This document shows positions 25,724-31,663 of a DNA stretch of 33,499 nt, piece after piece. The DNA lies in IMG/VR virus record IMGVR_UViG_3300011334_000408, positions 1 to 33,499 of that record. One strand, written 5' to 3'. This DNA comes from a virus (lineage: Duplodnaviria; Caudoviricetes). The notes under the pieces are model-generated. The model did not search any database and was not told the DNA's origin. It saw only the letters and a list, made by a program, of their open reading frames with translations. Each line of letters opens with the position of its first letter. Within the stretch, counting starts at the first letter, position 1. Made by a program: the position numbers and the translations under genes.

Positions 25724-26026
25724 ATGACAGAATTAAGCAAAGTTACCGCAGAAATTGAACGCATACGCCATCACCAAGATTTACAAAAGAAAGTAAACGA
25801 GGAAAACTCTAAAATATTACTTGAAATAAAAACCGCTTTAGTAGGTTCTGAAATGAATAATCATAAAGGTGTAGTTTCTCAATTAAAAGAAATAGACGAC
25901 AGAGTTGAAGATTTAGAGGAGTTTAAAGGCGAAGTAAATGTTTATGTAAAACAAGCTAAATTTGTAGTTGGTGCTTTAGTTGTTCTTTTATTAGGTATAT
26001 TTGCTAAACTATTTAATTTAAAATAA
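25724..26026 (+). CDS. coiled-coil protein with C-terminal TM (lysis accessory)
   Basis: Coiled coil followed by FVVGALVVLLLGIF. Confidence 0.6.
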   Translation: MTELSKVTAEIERIRHHQDLQKKVNEENSKILLEIKTALVGSEMNNHKGVVSQLKEIDDRVEDLEEFKGEVNVYVKQAKFVVGALVVLLLGIFAKLFNLK

Positions 26027-26027
26027 T

Positions 26028-26195
26028 ATGAAAAAACTAATTAGAGTGTATTTTTGGATAGGTGTAAATGTAATAGGAATACCTGAGTTATTTATCCATA
26101 AGTTAAAACCTACTACATTTGTAGAAAATAGTATTTTTTTAGGAGAACAAAGAACAAACGTTTATTTATTTAATCAATCTTTAGAATTGTTATGA
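26028..26195 (+). CDS. hypothetical protein (55 aa)
   Basis: ATGA overlap with the endolysin gene. Confidence 0.5.
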
Positions 26196-26656
26196 TAACA
26201 ACAACACAAGCTACTCAAAAATACGGAATACCTAGTAAAAATCCAAACTATTTAACTACTTTAAATCTACCTTATCCAATGCGTTTAAGTTGGGATAAAA
26301 ACATTAAAGTAAATAAAATACAATGTCATAAATTAGTAGCTGATAAATTAAGTAAAATATTTGAAGAAATATTACTTGTTTATGGTTATGATAAAATTTT
26401 TGAGTTAGGAATTGATTTGTTTGGTGGTTGTTTTAATTTTCGTGCAATGCGTGGCGGAACTGCACCGAGCAGACATAGTTGGGGAATAGCTATTGACCTT
26501 GACCCTGAAAGAAATCAATTAAAAGAAACTTCCTCTACTGCAAGATTTGCAAGACCAGAATATAAACCAATGATTGATATTTTCTATAAACACGGATTTA
26601 TTTCTTTAGGACGTGAAAAGAATTATGATTGGATGCATTTTGAAGTTAAAGAATAA
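26192..26656 (+). CDS. endolysin, M15-family Zn peptidase
   Basis: [10 protein letters not shown] (SxHxxGxAxD) and DWMHFE motifs. Confidence 0.88.
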
Positions 26657-26687
26657 CGCCACCTCATAATCTCAGTATTATGAACCT

Positions 26688-26709
26688 GCTCCTTATGGGA
26701 GCTTTTTTT
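26688..26709 (+). terminator. intrinsic terminator after endolysin
   Basis: GCTCC-TTATG-GGAGC followed by T7. Confidence 0.75.
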
Positions 26710-26727
26710 ATTTATAATCATTATAAA
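26708..26727. promoter_or_regulatory. palindromic operator-like site, copy 1
   Basis: TTATTTATAATCATTATAAA; 19/20 identical to the copy at 31541-31560. Confidence 0.45.
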
Positions 26728-26736
26728 CTACACTAT

Positions 26737-26770
26737 TTTGTTATTAATATCAAAATAAATATTATATTTG
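26737..26770 (+). promoter_or_regulatory. promoter reading into the cassette array (Pc-like)
   Basis: TATATTTG at 26763-26770 and TTTG at 26737-26740; ends 9 nt before the first TAAC. Confidence 0.65.
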
Positions 26771-26779
26771 TAAAAGAAT

Positions 26780-26908
26780 TAACGTTCCCGTGCTTGGCGA
26801 GGTTCAAGGAAAGTAAATCCAGATGCTTTGAGTCAAGACTGAAATTAACAAACACAAACAGAATTTTAAATTAATAACTAAACCTTGAATCTTGCCAAAC
26901 ACGTGTTA
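26780..26908 (+). repeat. attC-like hairpin E1 (129 bp)
   Basis: TAAC-gttcc-CGTGCTTGGCGAGGTTCAAGG...CCTTGAATCTTGCCAAACACG-t-GTTA. Confidence 0.85.
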
Positions 26909-26980
26909 TAAGTAGTTGCGGTTAATTAGTAGGATTTTAAATTGAAACAATAAACAAAAAATAATTAAAACAAAAAAGCG

Positions 26981-27370
26981 ATGGATATTAAAGAATTTAC
27001 ATTTACTGGCTTCATAAAAATTGATTGGAGCGAAGATTTTAAAACTATCAAACTTATTGATGACAAAAAATCAATTGACCTTGTAAAAAAGTTTAGGGCA
27101 ATTTTTGATTTGTTTGAAAGCGAAGTTTCTGTTTCGTATTTCATTTCAAACGATAAAAAGACAGAAGTAGAAATACAAGAAGGCTGGTTAAAACAAATGT
27201 TTGGCGGAATAACTGCTGAATACGAAACAAGTAGCTACAACTACTCATCTTATACTTATGGTACAGATTATGACACTTATTTAAAAATTGGCGGACACGA
27301 TTTGTTTGACGAGTTTTCAGAACTAAACGATAAATGGTGTGTACTTAAAGTAAATGTAAAATGTGCGTAG
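26981..27370 (+). CDS. cassette 1 cargo, hypothetical protein
   Basis: 129-aa ORF within the inverted repeat at 26905-26919/27425-27439. Confidence 0.75.
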   Translation: MDIKEFTFTGFIKIDWSEDFKTIKLIDDKKSIDLVKKFRAIFDLFESEVSVSYFISNDKKTEVEIQEGWLKQMFGGITAEYETSSYNYSSYTYGTDYDTYLKIGGHDLFDEFSELNDKWCVLKVNVKCA

Positions 27371-27435
27371 GCTTTTGTTTTAATTATTTTTTGAAACGAA
27401 ATGTCAATTTGAAAACGGATGGGAGCAATTACTTA

Positions 27436-27506
27436 TAACGTTTTGGTGCTTGACGATGTGGCGGTCTGGAAATAGTACGTTCCGCCATATTGCCAAACAC
27501 TTGTTA
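27436..27506 (+). repeat. attC-like hairpin E2 (71 bp)
   Basis: TAAC-gttttg-GTGCTTGACGATGTGGCGG...CCGCCATATTGCCAAACAC-tt-GTTA. Confidence 0.85.
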
Positions 27507-27542
27507 TAAGCCGTTTATTTTATAAACTTTAAAATTATAATT

Positions 27543-27719
27543 ATGAAATATATATCATTTATTTTAATAACATTATGGGCTCTTTGGATGCTTGGAACAA
27601 ATGGAAATTTAAAACCTTCCGACAATTATTTTTTATGGATTTTAGGTGTTTTATCCATAATGTATTCGGTCATTAACTTGATTATCTTTTATGTAGATAT
27701 TCGTAAAAATGGCTTATAA
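27543..27719 (+). CDS. cassette 2 cargo, 58-aa two-TM membrane protein (not in ORF track)
   Basis: MKYISFILITLWALWMLG...FLWILGVLSIMYSVINLIIFY...; its stop is the TAA of the TAAC core. Confidence 0.7.
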   Translation: MKYISFILITLWALWMLGTNGNLKPSDNYFLWILGVLSIMYSVINLIIFYVDIRKNGL

Positions 27720-27843
27720 CGTTTTGTGGCTTTGCGTTCGTTGGGGATTTCCAGCACTAAAGCCGATTGATAGTACAAATTTTAAATATAGCACAAATGA
27801 TTATAGATAGCACTAAAGCCCCAATGACGCAAAACCACTGTTA
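27717..27843 (+). repeat. attC-like hairpin E3 (127 bp)
   Basis: TAAC-gtttt-GTGGCTTTGCGTTCGTTGGGG...CCCCAATGACGCAAAACCAC-t-GTTA. Confidence 0.85.
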
Positions 27844-28480
27844 TACGCAGCCCTTTTCAGAAGTTTTCAATGATGATTGTATTACGGTTATGAAGAGTTA
27901 TCCTGACAAATTCTTTGACCTTGCAGTAGTTGACCCACCTTATGGGATTGGAGCAAACAAAATGCAACTTGGCAATGGTAAAAGAAAGATTTACAGAGGC
28001 AAAAATGATTGGGATAACTCAATCCCTACTGCTGATTATTGGCAGGAACTTTTCAGAGTATCTAAAAACCAAATTGTGTGGGGTGGCAATTATATGACAG
28101 AACACCTGAAGCCAACTTCATCTTGGTTATTTTGGGATAAGGGAACTGGAGATAATGATTTTGCAGATGGGGAATTGGCTTGGACTTCATTTGGTGGAGC
28201 ATTGCGAAAAATAACCAAGAGTTGGGTTGGTGCAAATGCTAAAGATGGACTTGAACGAATACATCCAACGCAGAAACCCATTTATTTATATGATTGGATT
28301 TTTGACCGATATTGCAAAGAAGGAGATTTGGTTTTAGATACTCATTTGGGGAGTGCCAGCAGTAGGATTTCAGCAGATAAAGCCAAGTTGCGTTTTGTTG
28401 GTTGTGAAATAGATACTAAATATTTTAATGATGGAGAAGCAAGGTTCAAAGATTTTGTTTCACAGATGCGGCTCTTTTAG
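27797..28480 (+). CDS. cassette 3 cargo, N6-adenine/N4-cytosine DNA methyltransferase (beta class)
   Basis: DPPY precedes HPTQKP and motif I LDTHLGSASS; start ATG at 27797 or 27824 lies inside E3. Confidence 0.9.
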   Translation: MIIDSTKAPMTQNHCYTQPFSEVFNDDCITVMKSYPDKFFDLAVVDPPYGIGANKMQLGNGKRKIYRGKNDWDNSIPTADYWQELFRVSKNQIVWGGNYMTEHLKPTSSWLFWDKGTGDNDFADGELAWTSFGGALRKITKSWVGANAKDGLERIHPTQKPIYLYDWIFDRYCKEGDLVLDTHLGSASSRISADKAKLRFVGCEIDTKYFNDGEARFKDFVSQMRLF

Positions 28481-28489
28481 GGTTGCGTA

Positions 28490-28547
28490 TAACGGTTGCG
28501 GGTATGGGCTGGCGGCTTTTTCTGCCGCTTGCTTATACCCGATGTTA
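28490..28547 (+). repeat. attC-like hairpin E4 (58 bp)
   Basis: TAAC-ggttg-CGGGTATGGGCTGGCGGC-tttttct-GCCGCTTGCTTATACCCG-at-GTTA. Confidence 0.85.
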
Positions 28548-28585
28548 CCAGCTGGCACGGATTATTAACAACAAAAGCTAATTAG

Positions 28586-29548
28586 ATGAATGAAACAGTT
28601 TTAAATAATTTTTTGAGGGATGGCAAAAACGGCTTGCCCGAAGAATTTAACGTACTATCATTGTTTGATGGGATGAGTTGCGGGCAAATTGCACTTAATA
28701 ACATTGGATTGAAACCTACAAAGTATTTTGCGGCCGAGATTAAAAAACACGCTATACAATGCACTTTAGATAATTTTCCTGATACAATACAGATTGGAGA
28801 TGTAACGAAAGTAAAAGGCCAAGATTTGCCAAAAATACATTTATTGATAGGTGGAAGCCCTTGTCAAGATTTTAGTAGGGCAAATAGTGTAAGAGATGGT
28901 TTAAAAGGAATGAAATCAATGTTATTTTATGAATACATAAGATTACTTGAGGAAACGAAACCTGATTACTATTTACTTGAAAATGTTATAATGGATGATT
29001 TAGGTTACAATACAATAACCGAATTATTAGGAACAGAACCAGTAAGATTGTGCGGTTCAAAAGTAAGCGGAGCTTTAAGAGATAGATTATTTTGGACTAA
29101 TATCGGGCCTGAAAGTTTTGATTTATTTGGTAATCGTAAAAGTGCAATACCACAACCGAGAGATAAAAAAATAATGTTGAATGATGTTTTAGAATACGGA
29201 TATTCAGATAAGAAAAAACACACTTGCTTAAATACAAGTTGTGGCCGAGATGCAAACCAAAGATATATGCTGCATAGATACGCTACTACTGGAATGACTA
29301 CCATTATTTACACAGATGAAACAATGGATGAAAGCAAGGGTGTAAGGTATTGCACACAAACTGAATTGGAGAAATTGCACAATATACCATTAGGATATAC
29401 GAAAAACTTAAACAAGGCACAAGCTGGCAATTTGATTGGAGATGGTTGGAGTGTTGGAATAGTTGAACATATCTTTTCTTTTTTAAAAGGGGAGGAAAAA
29501 AAATTATTTAAAACTGAACCGAAATGCTTAATCGAAGAACGTCCGTAG
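28586..29548 (+). CDS. cassette 4 cargo, C5-cytosine DNA methyltransferase
   Basis: Motif I LSLFDGMSCG, IV GGSPCQ, VI ENV, VIII RDRLFW, X GDGW. Confidence 0.92.
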   Translation: MNETVLNNFLRDGKNGLPEEFNVLSLFDGMSCGQIALNNIGLKPTKYFAAEIKKHAIQCTLDNFPDTIQIGDVTKVKGQDLPKIHLLIGGSPCQDFSRANSVRDGLKGMKSMLFYEYIRLLEETKPDYYLLENVIMDDLGYNTITELLGTEPVRLCGSKVSGALRDRLFWTNIGPESFDLFGNRKSAIPQPRDKKIMLNDVLEYGYSDKKKHTCLNTSCGRDANQRYMLHRYATTGMTTIIYTDETMDESKGVRYCTQTELEKLHNIPLGYTKNLNKAQAGNLIGDGWSVGIVEHIFSFLKGEEKKLFKTEPKCLIEERP

Positions 29549-29558
29549 TGCTTGCTGG

Positions 29559-29687
29559 TAACATTCCCGTGCTTGGCGAGGTTCAAGGAAAGTAAATCCC
29601 GATGCTTCGAGTCAAGACCAAAATTAACAAATACAAACAGATTTTTAAATTAATAACTAAACCTTGAATCTTGCCAAACACGTGTTA
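29559..29687 (+). repeat. attC-like hairpin E5 (129 bp), near copy of E1
   Basis: Seven substitutions relative to E1 by hand alignment, none in the paired stem. Confidence 0.9.
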
Positions 29688-29719
29688 TAGCTTGTGGCGG
29701 ATTTTTAAAAACGAAAATT

Positions 29720-29941
29720 ATGTCAATAGAAAAAATGGAAATGTTTACAGTTATATGCGATAACTGCAAAACAAGTGCGGATGAAGATACTGATTATTCT
29801 TGTTGGAATGATGAAAGTGCCGCTAAAGATGTTGCAATGGAAGCCGATTACATTTATGAAGACGACAAGCATTATTGTCCTAAATGTTACAGATATAATG
29901 ATGAAGATGAATTGATAATTAACACAGAAAGAACAAAATGA
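29720..29941 (+). CDS. cassette 5 cargo A, acidic Zn-ribbon protein
   Basis: CDNC...HYCPKC. Confidence 0.7.
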   Translation: MSIEKMEMFTVICDNCKTSADEDTDYSCWNDESAAKDVAMEADYIYEDDKHYCPKCYRYNDEDELIINTERTK

Positions 29942-30219
29942 AAACTCTTAAAAAAGTAGAAATAGAACCCGTTTTTGTGGAGTTTGTTCCCGATGTTTTA
30001 GAAGAAAACAAAATCTATATTTCAGAAGAATATAAATGTGCTATTCATAATTGTTTGTGCGGTTGTGGAGAAAAAACAGTAATGCCTTTATATGGCAATG
30101 GATGGAATTTGATTAAAGAAAATAACGATAAAGTTTCATTTACTCCGAGTGTAGGAAACTATAATTTTCCTTGCAAATCACATTACATAATTACGAACAA
30201 TGTTGCAAATTTCGTTTAG
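29938..30219 (+). CDS. cassette 5 cargo B, DUF6527-like Cys/His protein
   Basis: CLCGCG...W...TPSVGN...CKSHY pattern; ATGA-coupled to cargo A. Confidence 0.6.
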   Translation: MKTLKKVEIEPVFVEFVPDVLEENKIYISEEYKCAIHNCLCGCGEKTVMPLYGNGWNLIKENNDKVSFTPSVGNYNFPCKSHYIITNNVANFV

Positions 30220-30289
30220 AACCGAAATCGTAGCCATAAGCTATAACTCCTTTATACTCGTAACTAACCTATTTAAACCTTTATAAACA

Positions 30290-30568
30290 ATGGAAAAAAA
30301 CCTTGACATAATAATTTACTCTAATTTTTTTGAGTTAGAAAATAGATTATTTGCATTTAGAAAAAAGCAATTATTTGACATTACCAATTTACCAACTTTA
30401 GTAAATTTAAAAGATAATAATAATTGTTTAGGATATTGGATTAATAGAAAATGGTTTACTTTGTCAAAATTAAAACCATTGATTAAAAAAGAAGAAAAAA
30501 AAGTTGATGTAAGTAGCTTACAATGGTATCAACAAATAGAATTAGATTGTGTATTTAACTTAAATTAA
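30290..30568 (+). CDS. hypothetical protein
   Basis: 92-aa ORF just after the array end. Confidence 0.7.
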   Translation: MEKNLDIIIYSNFFELENRLFAFRKKQLFDITNLPTLVNLKDNNNCLGYWINRKWFTLSKLKPLIKKEEKKVDVSSLQWYQQIELDCVFNLN

Positions 30569-30572
30569 AAAT

Positions 30573-30725
30573 ATGCCACCACCAAAGAAAACAACAACAA
30601 GGGTAAATATAGTATTTATGCCTTATCAGAAATCATCAAAAAGTTATAGTTTTCACATTGAAGAAAACTTAACCAAAGAAGAAAAAATAAAACAAATTAA
30701 TGAATTTTTAAAAGAAGTGTTATGA
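30573..30725 (+). CDS. hypothetical protein (50 aa)
   Basis: MPPPKKTTTRV...; coupled to the next ORF. Confidence 0.5.
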   Translation: MPPPKKTTTRVNIVFMPYQKSSKSYSFHIEENLTKEEKIKQINEFLKEVL

Positions 30726-31539: not shown

Positions 31540-31540
31540 A

Positions 31541-31563
31541 TTATTTATAATCAATATAAATAA
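31541..31563. promoter_or_regulatory. palindromic operator-like site, copy 2
   Basis: TTATTTATA-ATCAA-TATAAATAA with perfect 9-bp arms. Confidence 0.45.
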
Positions 31564-31616
31564 ACTATATTTTATAAAATATTTTTAAAAAAGTTTTTTT
31601 ATATCAATTGTCCTTG

Positions 31617-31624
31617 TATATTTG
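31617..31624 (+). promoter_or_regulatory. early promoter -7 element
   Basis: TATATTTG in an AT-rich intergenic region before the small-ORF cluster. Confidence 0.6.
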
Positions 31625-31663
31625 TACCAGCAATAAAGCAAAACAATTTAATAAATAAAAATT

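Follow-up and report, generated by a model that had tools for sequence, protein, structure and literature searches.

A recombinase-less phage array of hairpin-first cassettes with an integron-like layout

Described cassette systems and the layout of the phage array

Classical attC sites of integrons have two arms, each with an unpaired spacer of 5-6 nt, and 2-3 extrahelical bases (PMC5027507), and the catalytic-domain insertion of the IntI integrases has been called essential (PMC8138268). The reverse integrons of Treponema are described as flipping intI and not the cargo genes (PMC3607928, PMC7691350), and few complete integrons were reported in Bacteroidetes with IntegronFinder 2 (PMC9024848). 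The rAID-1 clusters are Bacteroidales arrays in which, as the preprint describes them, a 5′ XerD-like recombinase is followed by co-directional genes, the criterion being a recombinase more than 44% identical to BF9343_RS08045 together with the same intergenic motifs (Ross et al., bioRxiv 10.1101/471110). Clusters of cassettes that include methylases but no recombinase have been reported in lytic phages as phage CALINs, including that of Polaribacter phage P12002L (Qi et al. 2023, PMC9892861). We found no published description of hairpin-first phage arrays in a non-exhaustive search, which rAID-1 had also escaped.

The window analysed here is a whole virus record of 33,499 bp, which encodes terminase, portal, primase/helicase, Erf-like and NinB proteins; the contig has no terminal repeat and may be incomplete. 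Its endolysin gene (26192-26656) shows a 74% match to Flavobacterium columnare phages. Relatives in runs X4, X5 and X6 are without ~166 bp of the window at 26025-26192, from a holin-region gene to the endolysin start. Five hairpin-plus-gene units, each on the + strand, separate the endolysin gene from a 92-aa gene (30290-30568). Unit 1 (26780-27435) consists of a 129-nt hairpin (26780-26908) and a 129-aa gene with no assigned function (26981-27370), and unit 2 (27436-27716) of a 71-nt hairpin (27436-27506) and a 58-aa hydrophobic ORF (27543-27719). Unit 3 (27717-28489) has a 127-nt hairpin (27717-27843) and an N6/N4 DNA methyltransferase gene ending at 28480 (PF01555, E=1.4e-13), while unit 4 (28490-29558) has a 58-nt hairpin (28490-28547) and a C5 cytosine methyltransferase gene (28586-29548; PF00145, E=1.7e-27). 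Unit 5 (29559-30243) opens with a 129-nt hairpin (29559-29687), followed by a 73-aa ORF (29720-29941) and a DUF6527 gene (29938-30219). Perfect inverted repeats that are apart from the terminal arms and flank or overlap gene ends were also seen in unit 1 (21 nt, 26955-26975/27373-27393) and unit 4 (19 nt, 28596-28614/29498-29516).

The likeness of this array to integrons lies in the AAC/GTT core and in cassette ends that are complementary in the circle (5 of 5 cassettes), with exact TAAC-to-TAAC indels in relatives, in one more stable, G:T-rich strand, and in gain and loss cassette by cassette. A main non-hairpin site located where the array gains cassettes is indicated by a related series of cultured phages, not by this array itself. 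In three membership features, however, the array departs from integrons. The window encodes no integrase, and array-linked recombinases do not carry the family-specific insertion in the IntI catalytic domain; the hairpin spacers of 5 versus 1-2 nt do not have classical attC geometry; and the hairpin precedes the gene in 5 of 5 units with a predicted −7 box at the far end, where integrons have the gene before attC and the promoter at attI. The strand predicted to fold is furthermore the coding strand here, unlike in integrons. The initial annotation had read the − strand as the classical integron layout, with antisense cargo and the promoter at the opposite end; we retain the integron-like layout, with sites that differ from classical attC and a matching recombinase other than IntI.

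The 5′ recombinase with co-directional genes that characterises rAID-1 is absent from the window but present in Flavobacteriaceae chromosomal loci, whose layout is that of rAID-1 when matched by its published description (10.1101/471110). In contrast to rAID-1 as described there, the array is phage-borne, its genes are reversed relative to the sites, its contig has no recombinase, its terminal site stands before and not after the recombinase slot, and its cargo comprises methylases where rAID-1 has immunity genes. We conclude that the array works like an integron array and, as far as the published description of rAID-1 allows, would best be classed with the rAID-1-type systems of Bacteroidota, as a phage variant with reversed cargo. 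A CALIN is defined by two or more attC sites and no integrase; the array has five clustered hairpins and no integrase, and its sites depart from attC geometry.

P12002L has the same array architecture as the window. Its sites were taken as ordinary attC with divergent directions by Qi et al. (PMC9892861). In our mapping of the sites described there, the one that IntI1 failed to integrate (attC1) corresponds to a hairpin-first site. Their attC2 corresponds to the opposite-strand reading of the terminal site and closes the gp35 cassette; the attC2 sequence closes two separate arrays in P12002L (L245:29165-29245 and ~37238). Integration of attC2 was reported with G|TT junctions and from one strand only (PMC9892861). 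If the forward oligonucleotide is the top strand, which we assume, the active strand of attC2 is the coding strand, as the initial annotation predicted. A strand bias of this kind is unlike a purely double-stranded attI and bears on the nature of the terminal site.

Overall, we consider it likely that the window carries a recombinase-less phage cassette array whose units move by integron-like recombination, with entry likely at 30244 and an enzyme that is probably the host's.

The probable mobile unit and its proposed folding strand

The array spans 26780-30247 and has the ends previously ascribed to it, namely a first hairpin without a preceding cassette arm and, on the right, an arm and TAAC without a sixth hairpin. 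The TAAC at 26780 is preceded by AAAAGAAT and opens a hairpin, and the TAAC at 30244-30247 is followed by TCCTTTATACTCGTAACT. The five hairpins have detector scores of 31.5-37.5 and the three other + strand matches in the window score 17-22.5, with 0 matches of at least 22 in 200,994 shuffled bases. No sixth hairpin, which the initial annotation had named as an outcome that would count against its reading, was found when 30244 was paired with each of the three GTTR at most 400 nt away (top score 11.5), and no opening arm was found upstream of 26780 (top score 10.8, null 95th percentile 11.2).

The start and end arms of all five cassette bodies match at 13-14 of the first 14-15 positions, whereas the arms either side of one in-array hairpin share a contiguous match of just 4-8 bases. 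The full stem would therefore require a body to be circularised, or looped out, together with a single hairpin. The proposed G:T bias of the + strand was recovered, with a G:T pair at arm position 11 in 5 of 5 cassettes, and the + strand fold is the more stable in all five, by 0.5-2 kcal/mol for bare hairpins and by 3.0-4.7 kcal/mol for circle-form sites. In a survey of two sets, viral/metagenomic and chromosomal, the G:T pair at arm position 11 was on the same strand in 259/303 cases of one and 257/271 of the other, and the G:T-bearing strand folded more stably in 286/303 and 264/271, counts that are partly built in because the detector rewards G:T on the scored strand and demands asymmetric spacers. 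The spacers of the array hairpins are 5 versus 1 nt in four and 5 versus 2 nt in one, and the folds have a C:A mismatch and no consistent extrahelical pair. An Rfam search returned just two sub-threshold miRNA matches, on hairpin 3.

Cassette homologues, pair counts and indels in cultured phages agree that the hairpin type co-segregates with the downstream gene and that, as proposed, the mobile unit is a hairpin plus the gene downstream of it, from TAAC to TAAC. In cassette 4 these ends are kept exactly. Four of its five full-length homologues (L095, L097, L098 and L099) match from 28490 to 29562-29565, upstream hairpin included, with flanking DNA that differs on both sides; the fifth (L096) is homologous from 28543 and has another upstream hairpin, and none of the five keeps the downstream hairpin of the window. 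Among contigs from public runs, that of X11 begins at 28490 and that of X7 at 28485, other pieces end at 27439-27440 and 29562, and cassette 4 homology in runs X4 and X6 starts at 28543 with a different upstream hairpin. For unit 1, the homologues carried by L140 and by contigs of runs X3 and X7 stop at 27439-27440.

A catalogue of 327 cassettes yielded 186 pairs that differ in both neighbours; the upstream hairpin was common to 38 of them and the downstream element to 0, against a background of 4/1486; it should be noted that these pairs are not independent, since 180 belong to one methylase family, and that 148 share neither element. Hairpins were detected downstream on both members in just 8 of the 186 pairs, with one sharing the upstream hairpin and none the downstream one. 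The clearest case comes from cultured phages, where mumin6-1 and mumin6-3 are one 506-bp unit apart, TAAC to TAAC, with the hairpin first. The converse pairing, homologues that consistently travel with their downstream hairpin, had been named beforehand as the outcome that would count against this unit, and not one of the 186 pairs displays it. Together with the exact hairpin-first indels and the right-hand arm that closes 54 of 70 arrays (compared with 8 of 83 in the null), this argues against classical polarity, in which the gene would travel with its downstream hairpin and the array would simply be truncated at both ends. We judge classical polarity most improbable, even though cassette 4 at times changes its upstream hairpin at a GTTA boundary, as such a reading would allow. 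Hairpin replacement does happen at times; by analogy with top-strand attC recombination (PMC5027507), rare use of the other strand would explain it. Near-identical duplicate cassettes, each with the same upstream hairpin, were also observed within single arrays (L181:6535-9928, L305, L312 and L314), with up to four copies of one of them in L305.

Another explanation is that the array was reshuffled by homologous or illegitimate recombination (Erf/NinB) between similar hairpins, with no site-specific enzyme. Erf-like and NinB proteins are indeed encoded in the window, hairpins 1 and 5 are 91% alike, and both the chimeric methylase cassette of L115 and the breakpoint between hemulen and stinky reach beyond TAAC into hairpin sequence that is similar. 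Against it stand breakpoints a few bases from TAAC that occur between unlike hairpins and at the non-hairpin terminal site, arms that pair in the circle form only, and arrays that adjoin one recombinase family, and we regard this explanation as very unlikely. Movement of hairpin-first units by a site-specific enzyme is the reading that we favour.

The terminal site and the likely end of cassette gain

The candidate attI equivalent is a terminal non-hairpin site on the + strand (30244-30289), composed of TAAC and 42 nt up to the next start codon, in which the crossover would fall within AAC. The flank from 30242-30244 onward is common to L002 (identical with L082), L081, L083, L229 and runs X4 and X5, and the cassettes differ. 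The 92-aa gene that follows (30290-30568, + strand) has no assigned function and fills the slot that is held by the recombinase in complete platforms. Its product has no PHROG, Pfam or NCBIfam match; the gene has 297 relatives, and in the Atlas the top protein match (0.88) is unnamed, with NUMOD4 at 0.79 as a lead only. A YAAC is positioned exactly 42 nt before the aligned start in 22 of the 26 loci with a relative of this gene, and the array closes just upstream of it in 17 of the 18 loci with a detectable upstream hairpin (8 of the 26 have no hairpin within the contig, and L090 and L240 are one contig). In recombinase-less arrays, we observed the terminal site followed by a member of the 92-aa family, by a ~60-aa ribbon-helix-helix-like gene or by a ~80-aa helix-turn-helix-like gene (small genes at L004:10748, L111:2687, L012, L014, L022, L070, L095, L405 and L418), the fold labels (ribbon-helix-helix, helix-turn-helix or winged helix) being our own reading of the sequences.

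The terminal site of the window has the invariant T6 and T8 of recombinase-adjacent phage sites. Scored with a matrix of those sites, the 12 nt that follow 30247 come only 56th among the 673 YAAC sites in the window, and with a matrix of chromosomal sites 223rd. Many chromosomal terminal sites, among them those just after the recombinase stop codon in L281, L282, L287, L292 and L296, have a short palindrome immediately beyond a TATA/GATA box, which the window site is without.

This weak match to other terminal sites, and the resemblance of terminal sites to the 5′ arm of hairpins, would also suit an account in which unit and polarity are as proposed but 30244 marks the head of a cassette that has decayed and become fixed (TAAC, spacer, half L box and then the 92-aa gene) or a secondary attG-type target, with entry at any AAC. 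The same account would accommodate internal gains and losses in cultured phages (units D, Q and F+G), the left flank of L408, which is joined to an AAC in an ORF, and the short GWT targets that integron integrases are described as using (10.1101/2022.09.11.507474). However, the constant distance of YAAC from the 92-aa gene, the closing of arrays at this very position, the absence of any 3′ arm remnant at the terminal site, the clustering of singleton units at the terminal end and the occurrence of the same position before recombinase genes all speak against it. We thus hold the decayed-head account to be unlikely and continue with 30244 as the likely site of entry.

In related cultured phages, not in this array, one-off units cluster at the terminal non-hairpin end, where the initial annotation had placed its candidate attI-like site. 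Ten cultured Baltic Flavobacterium phages, a chosen subset of the database records listed, represent seven array types of 10-15 units with one left flank and one terminal site. The three distal units are present in 7/7 array types, while the six singleton units, counted from the terminal site, have ranks 1, 1, 2, 3, 4 and 5. In filifjonk9-1, an additional unit follows precisely after the last mumin unit and directly precedes the shared terminal site. P12002L and P12002S differ mainly just upstream of common terminal sites, and FCV-3 has no such array. Such a conservation gradient is what growth at the terminal site combined with internal excision would predict, as judged from end states in a phage group other than that of the window. 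The closest relatives of the window have both flanks in common with it and no cassettes, not even the first unit, so the window's own group gives no direction of growth. Nor do duplicate cassettes give a direction: the site-adjacent slot belongs to a near-identical duplicate family in 3 of 6 arrays, with ~1.4 expected by hand count.

The predicted empty site, in which 26783 would be joined to 30248, was not recovered from viral contigs or from the matches listed for contigs of eight public runs. The 21-nt right flank had 0 exact matches in viral contigs, and the left-flank pattern occurred at 76 loci, three with true promoter context and none of them empty; neither recombination nor a circle was seen in the contigs examined, among the matches listed. 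In the nearest array-less relatives, L001 and L003, the promoter is kept and the array, the terminal site and the 92-aa gene are all absent. Since these are missing together, it does not follow that the left TAAC once formed half of a single original site. In L408 (7016-7112), the left-flank TAAC is fused at an internal AAC to the final 90 bp of an ORF, a junction whose sequence also fits an AAC crossover at the left end, as would result from recombination of the first hairpin with a secondary site. A structured non-coding stretch, tmRNA-like by eye, was seen after the endolysin gene of L001 (8520-8760).

Recombinases, proposed mechanism and expression

The window, hemulen6-1 and P12002L gave no recombinase match with a 54-sequence profile (best E 0.4, compared with 9e-68 for the Leef_1 control), and close relatives of the recombinase-less hemulen6-1 and P12002L still differ by exact units. 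In L096, a terminal-type site precedes a 273-aa tyrosine recombinase (PF00589 and PF13495), which has ~43 aa fewer than VchIntIA (2A3V), with 20 aa where 2A3V has 63, so that the IntI insertion is absent. Array-linked recombinases reach 122-204 bits on TIGR02249, the cut-off of which is 265. Such hairpins were located upstream of the recombinase in 41 and downstream in 7 of 78 recombinase loci, and in 23 loci (22 distinct) the distance from the close of the array to the recombinase ATG is 36-52 nt, a range that includes the 42 nt of the window. The cultured Polaribacter phage Leef_1 (L243:4243-8852) has hairpin-first cassettes, a terminal site and a recombinase annotated as an integrase, and is thus a complete system.

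Relatives of the recombinase were found in 93 of 121 sampled Flavobacteriaceae genomes by genome search, scans of genome contigs having given little. In chromosomal loci the same hairpins are downstream of the recombinase (18/20), with a non-hairpin site 27-126 nt after its stop codon in 17/20. Genes in 49 chromosomal cassettes were classical in 38, hairpin-first in 2 and unclear in 9, compared with 9 classical, 276 hairpin-first and 12 unclear in 297 viral/metagenomic cassettes. Judging by these sequences, the sites keep their handedness between phage and host and it is the phages that have reversed genes. The recombinase is probably supplied in trans by the host.

We propose that the + strand would fold into the recombining site, and that a Xer/IntI-like recombinase without the I2 insertion would cut within AAC. 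The excised circle would have its hairpin stem lengthened by both cassette arms; this would account for the + strand G:T at position 11, and circles would re-enter mainly at the terminal site. Methylase cargo would then tune protection against host restriction. It is possible, though in our view rather doubtful, that such arrays are a mirror-image capture platform of phages that uses host chemistry, with minimal versions consisting of a docking site, a small DNA-binding-like gene and a borrowed recombinase, and with reversed polarity as a firewall. If this were so, a cassette crossing between host and phage arrays would land antisense to the local promoter, and each methylase cassette acquired at the docking site would shift host range in one step. 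If the array works by the mechanism proposed above, single-strand hairpin recombination would not need the IntI insertion, and lytic phages would own a platform for shuffling cassettes that is probably overlooked or misinterpreted in standard integron searches. This mechanism is readily testable in the Baltic phages mumin, hemulen, filifjonk and tooticki together with their hosts, as these phages differ by exact units, several of which are methylases. Plating efficiency on LMO6 has been linked to one methyltransferase (PMC7077304), and the words 'cassette' and 'integrase' have 0 matches in the available text of that report. What we contribute here is the cultured series, with its exact indels and gradient, and the remapping of the published assay.

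Just upstream of the array, a Bacteroidota sigma-A −7 box is predicted on the + strand (TATATTTG, 26763-26770), which is the sole + strand copy of TAnnTTTG in 26600-30700; no matching −33 box was found at 17-21 nt spacing from it. Its context is the same in L001, L002, L003, L081 and L408. With the −7 box positioned at −12 to −5 (PMC9723704), transcription is predicted to start near 26775. A − strand TAnnTTTG at 30472, which points into the array, is one of six − strand matches in 4.1 kb and was set aside as a chance match. Under the proposed mechanism, the genes would be read from the far-end promoter along with the rest of the phage strand, and the newest cassette would therefore be the farthest from the promoter, the reverse of integrons. 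The reading frame of the unit 3 methyltransferase opens within the hairpin loop (an ATG in the hairpin), the one case among the five array genes, and in our survey an in-hairpin ATG was present in 110/218 long and 7/90 short hairpins. A second promoter-like stretch, which resembles 26700-26780, was observed in the window at 31540-31630.
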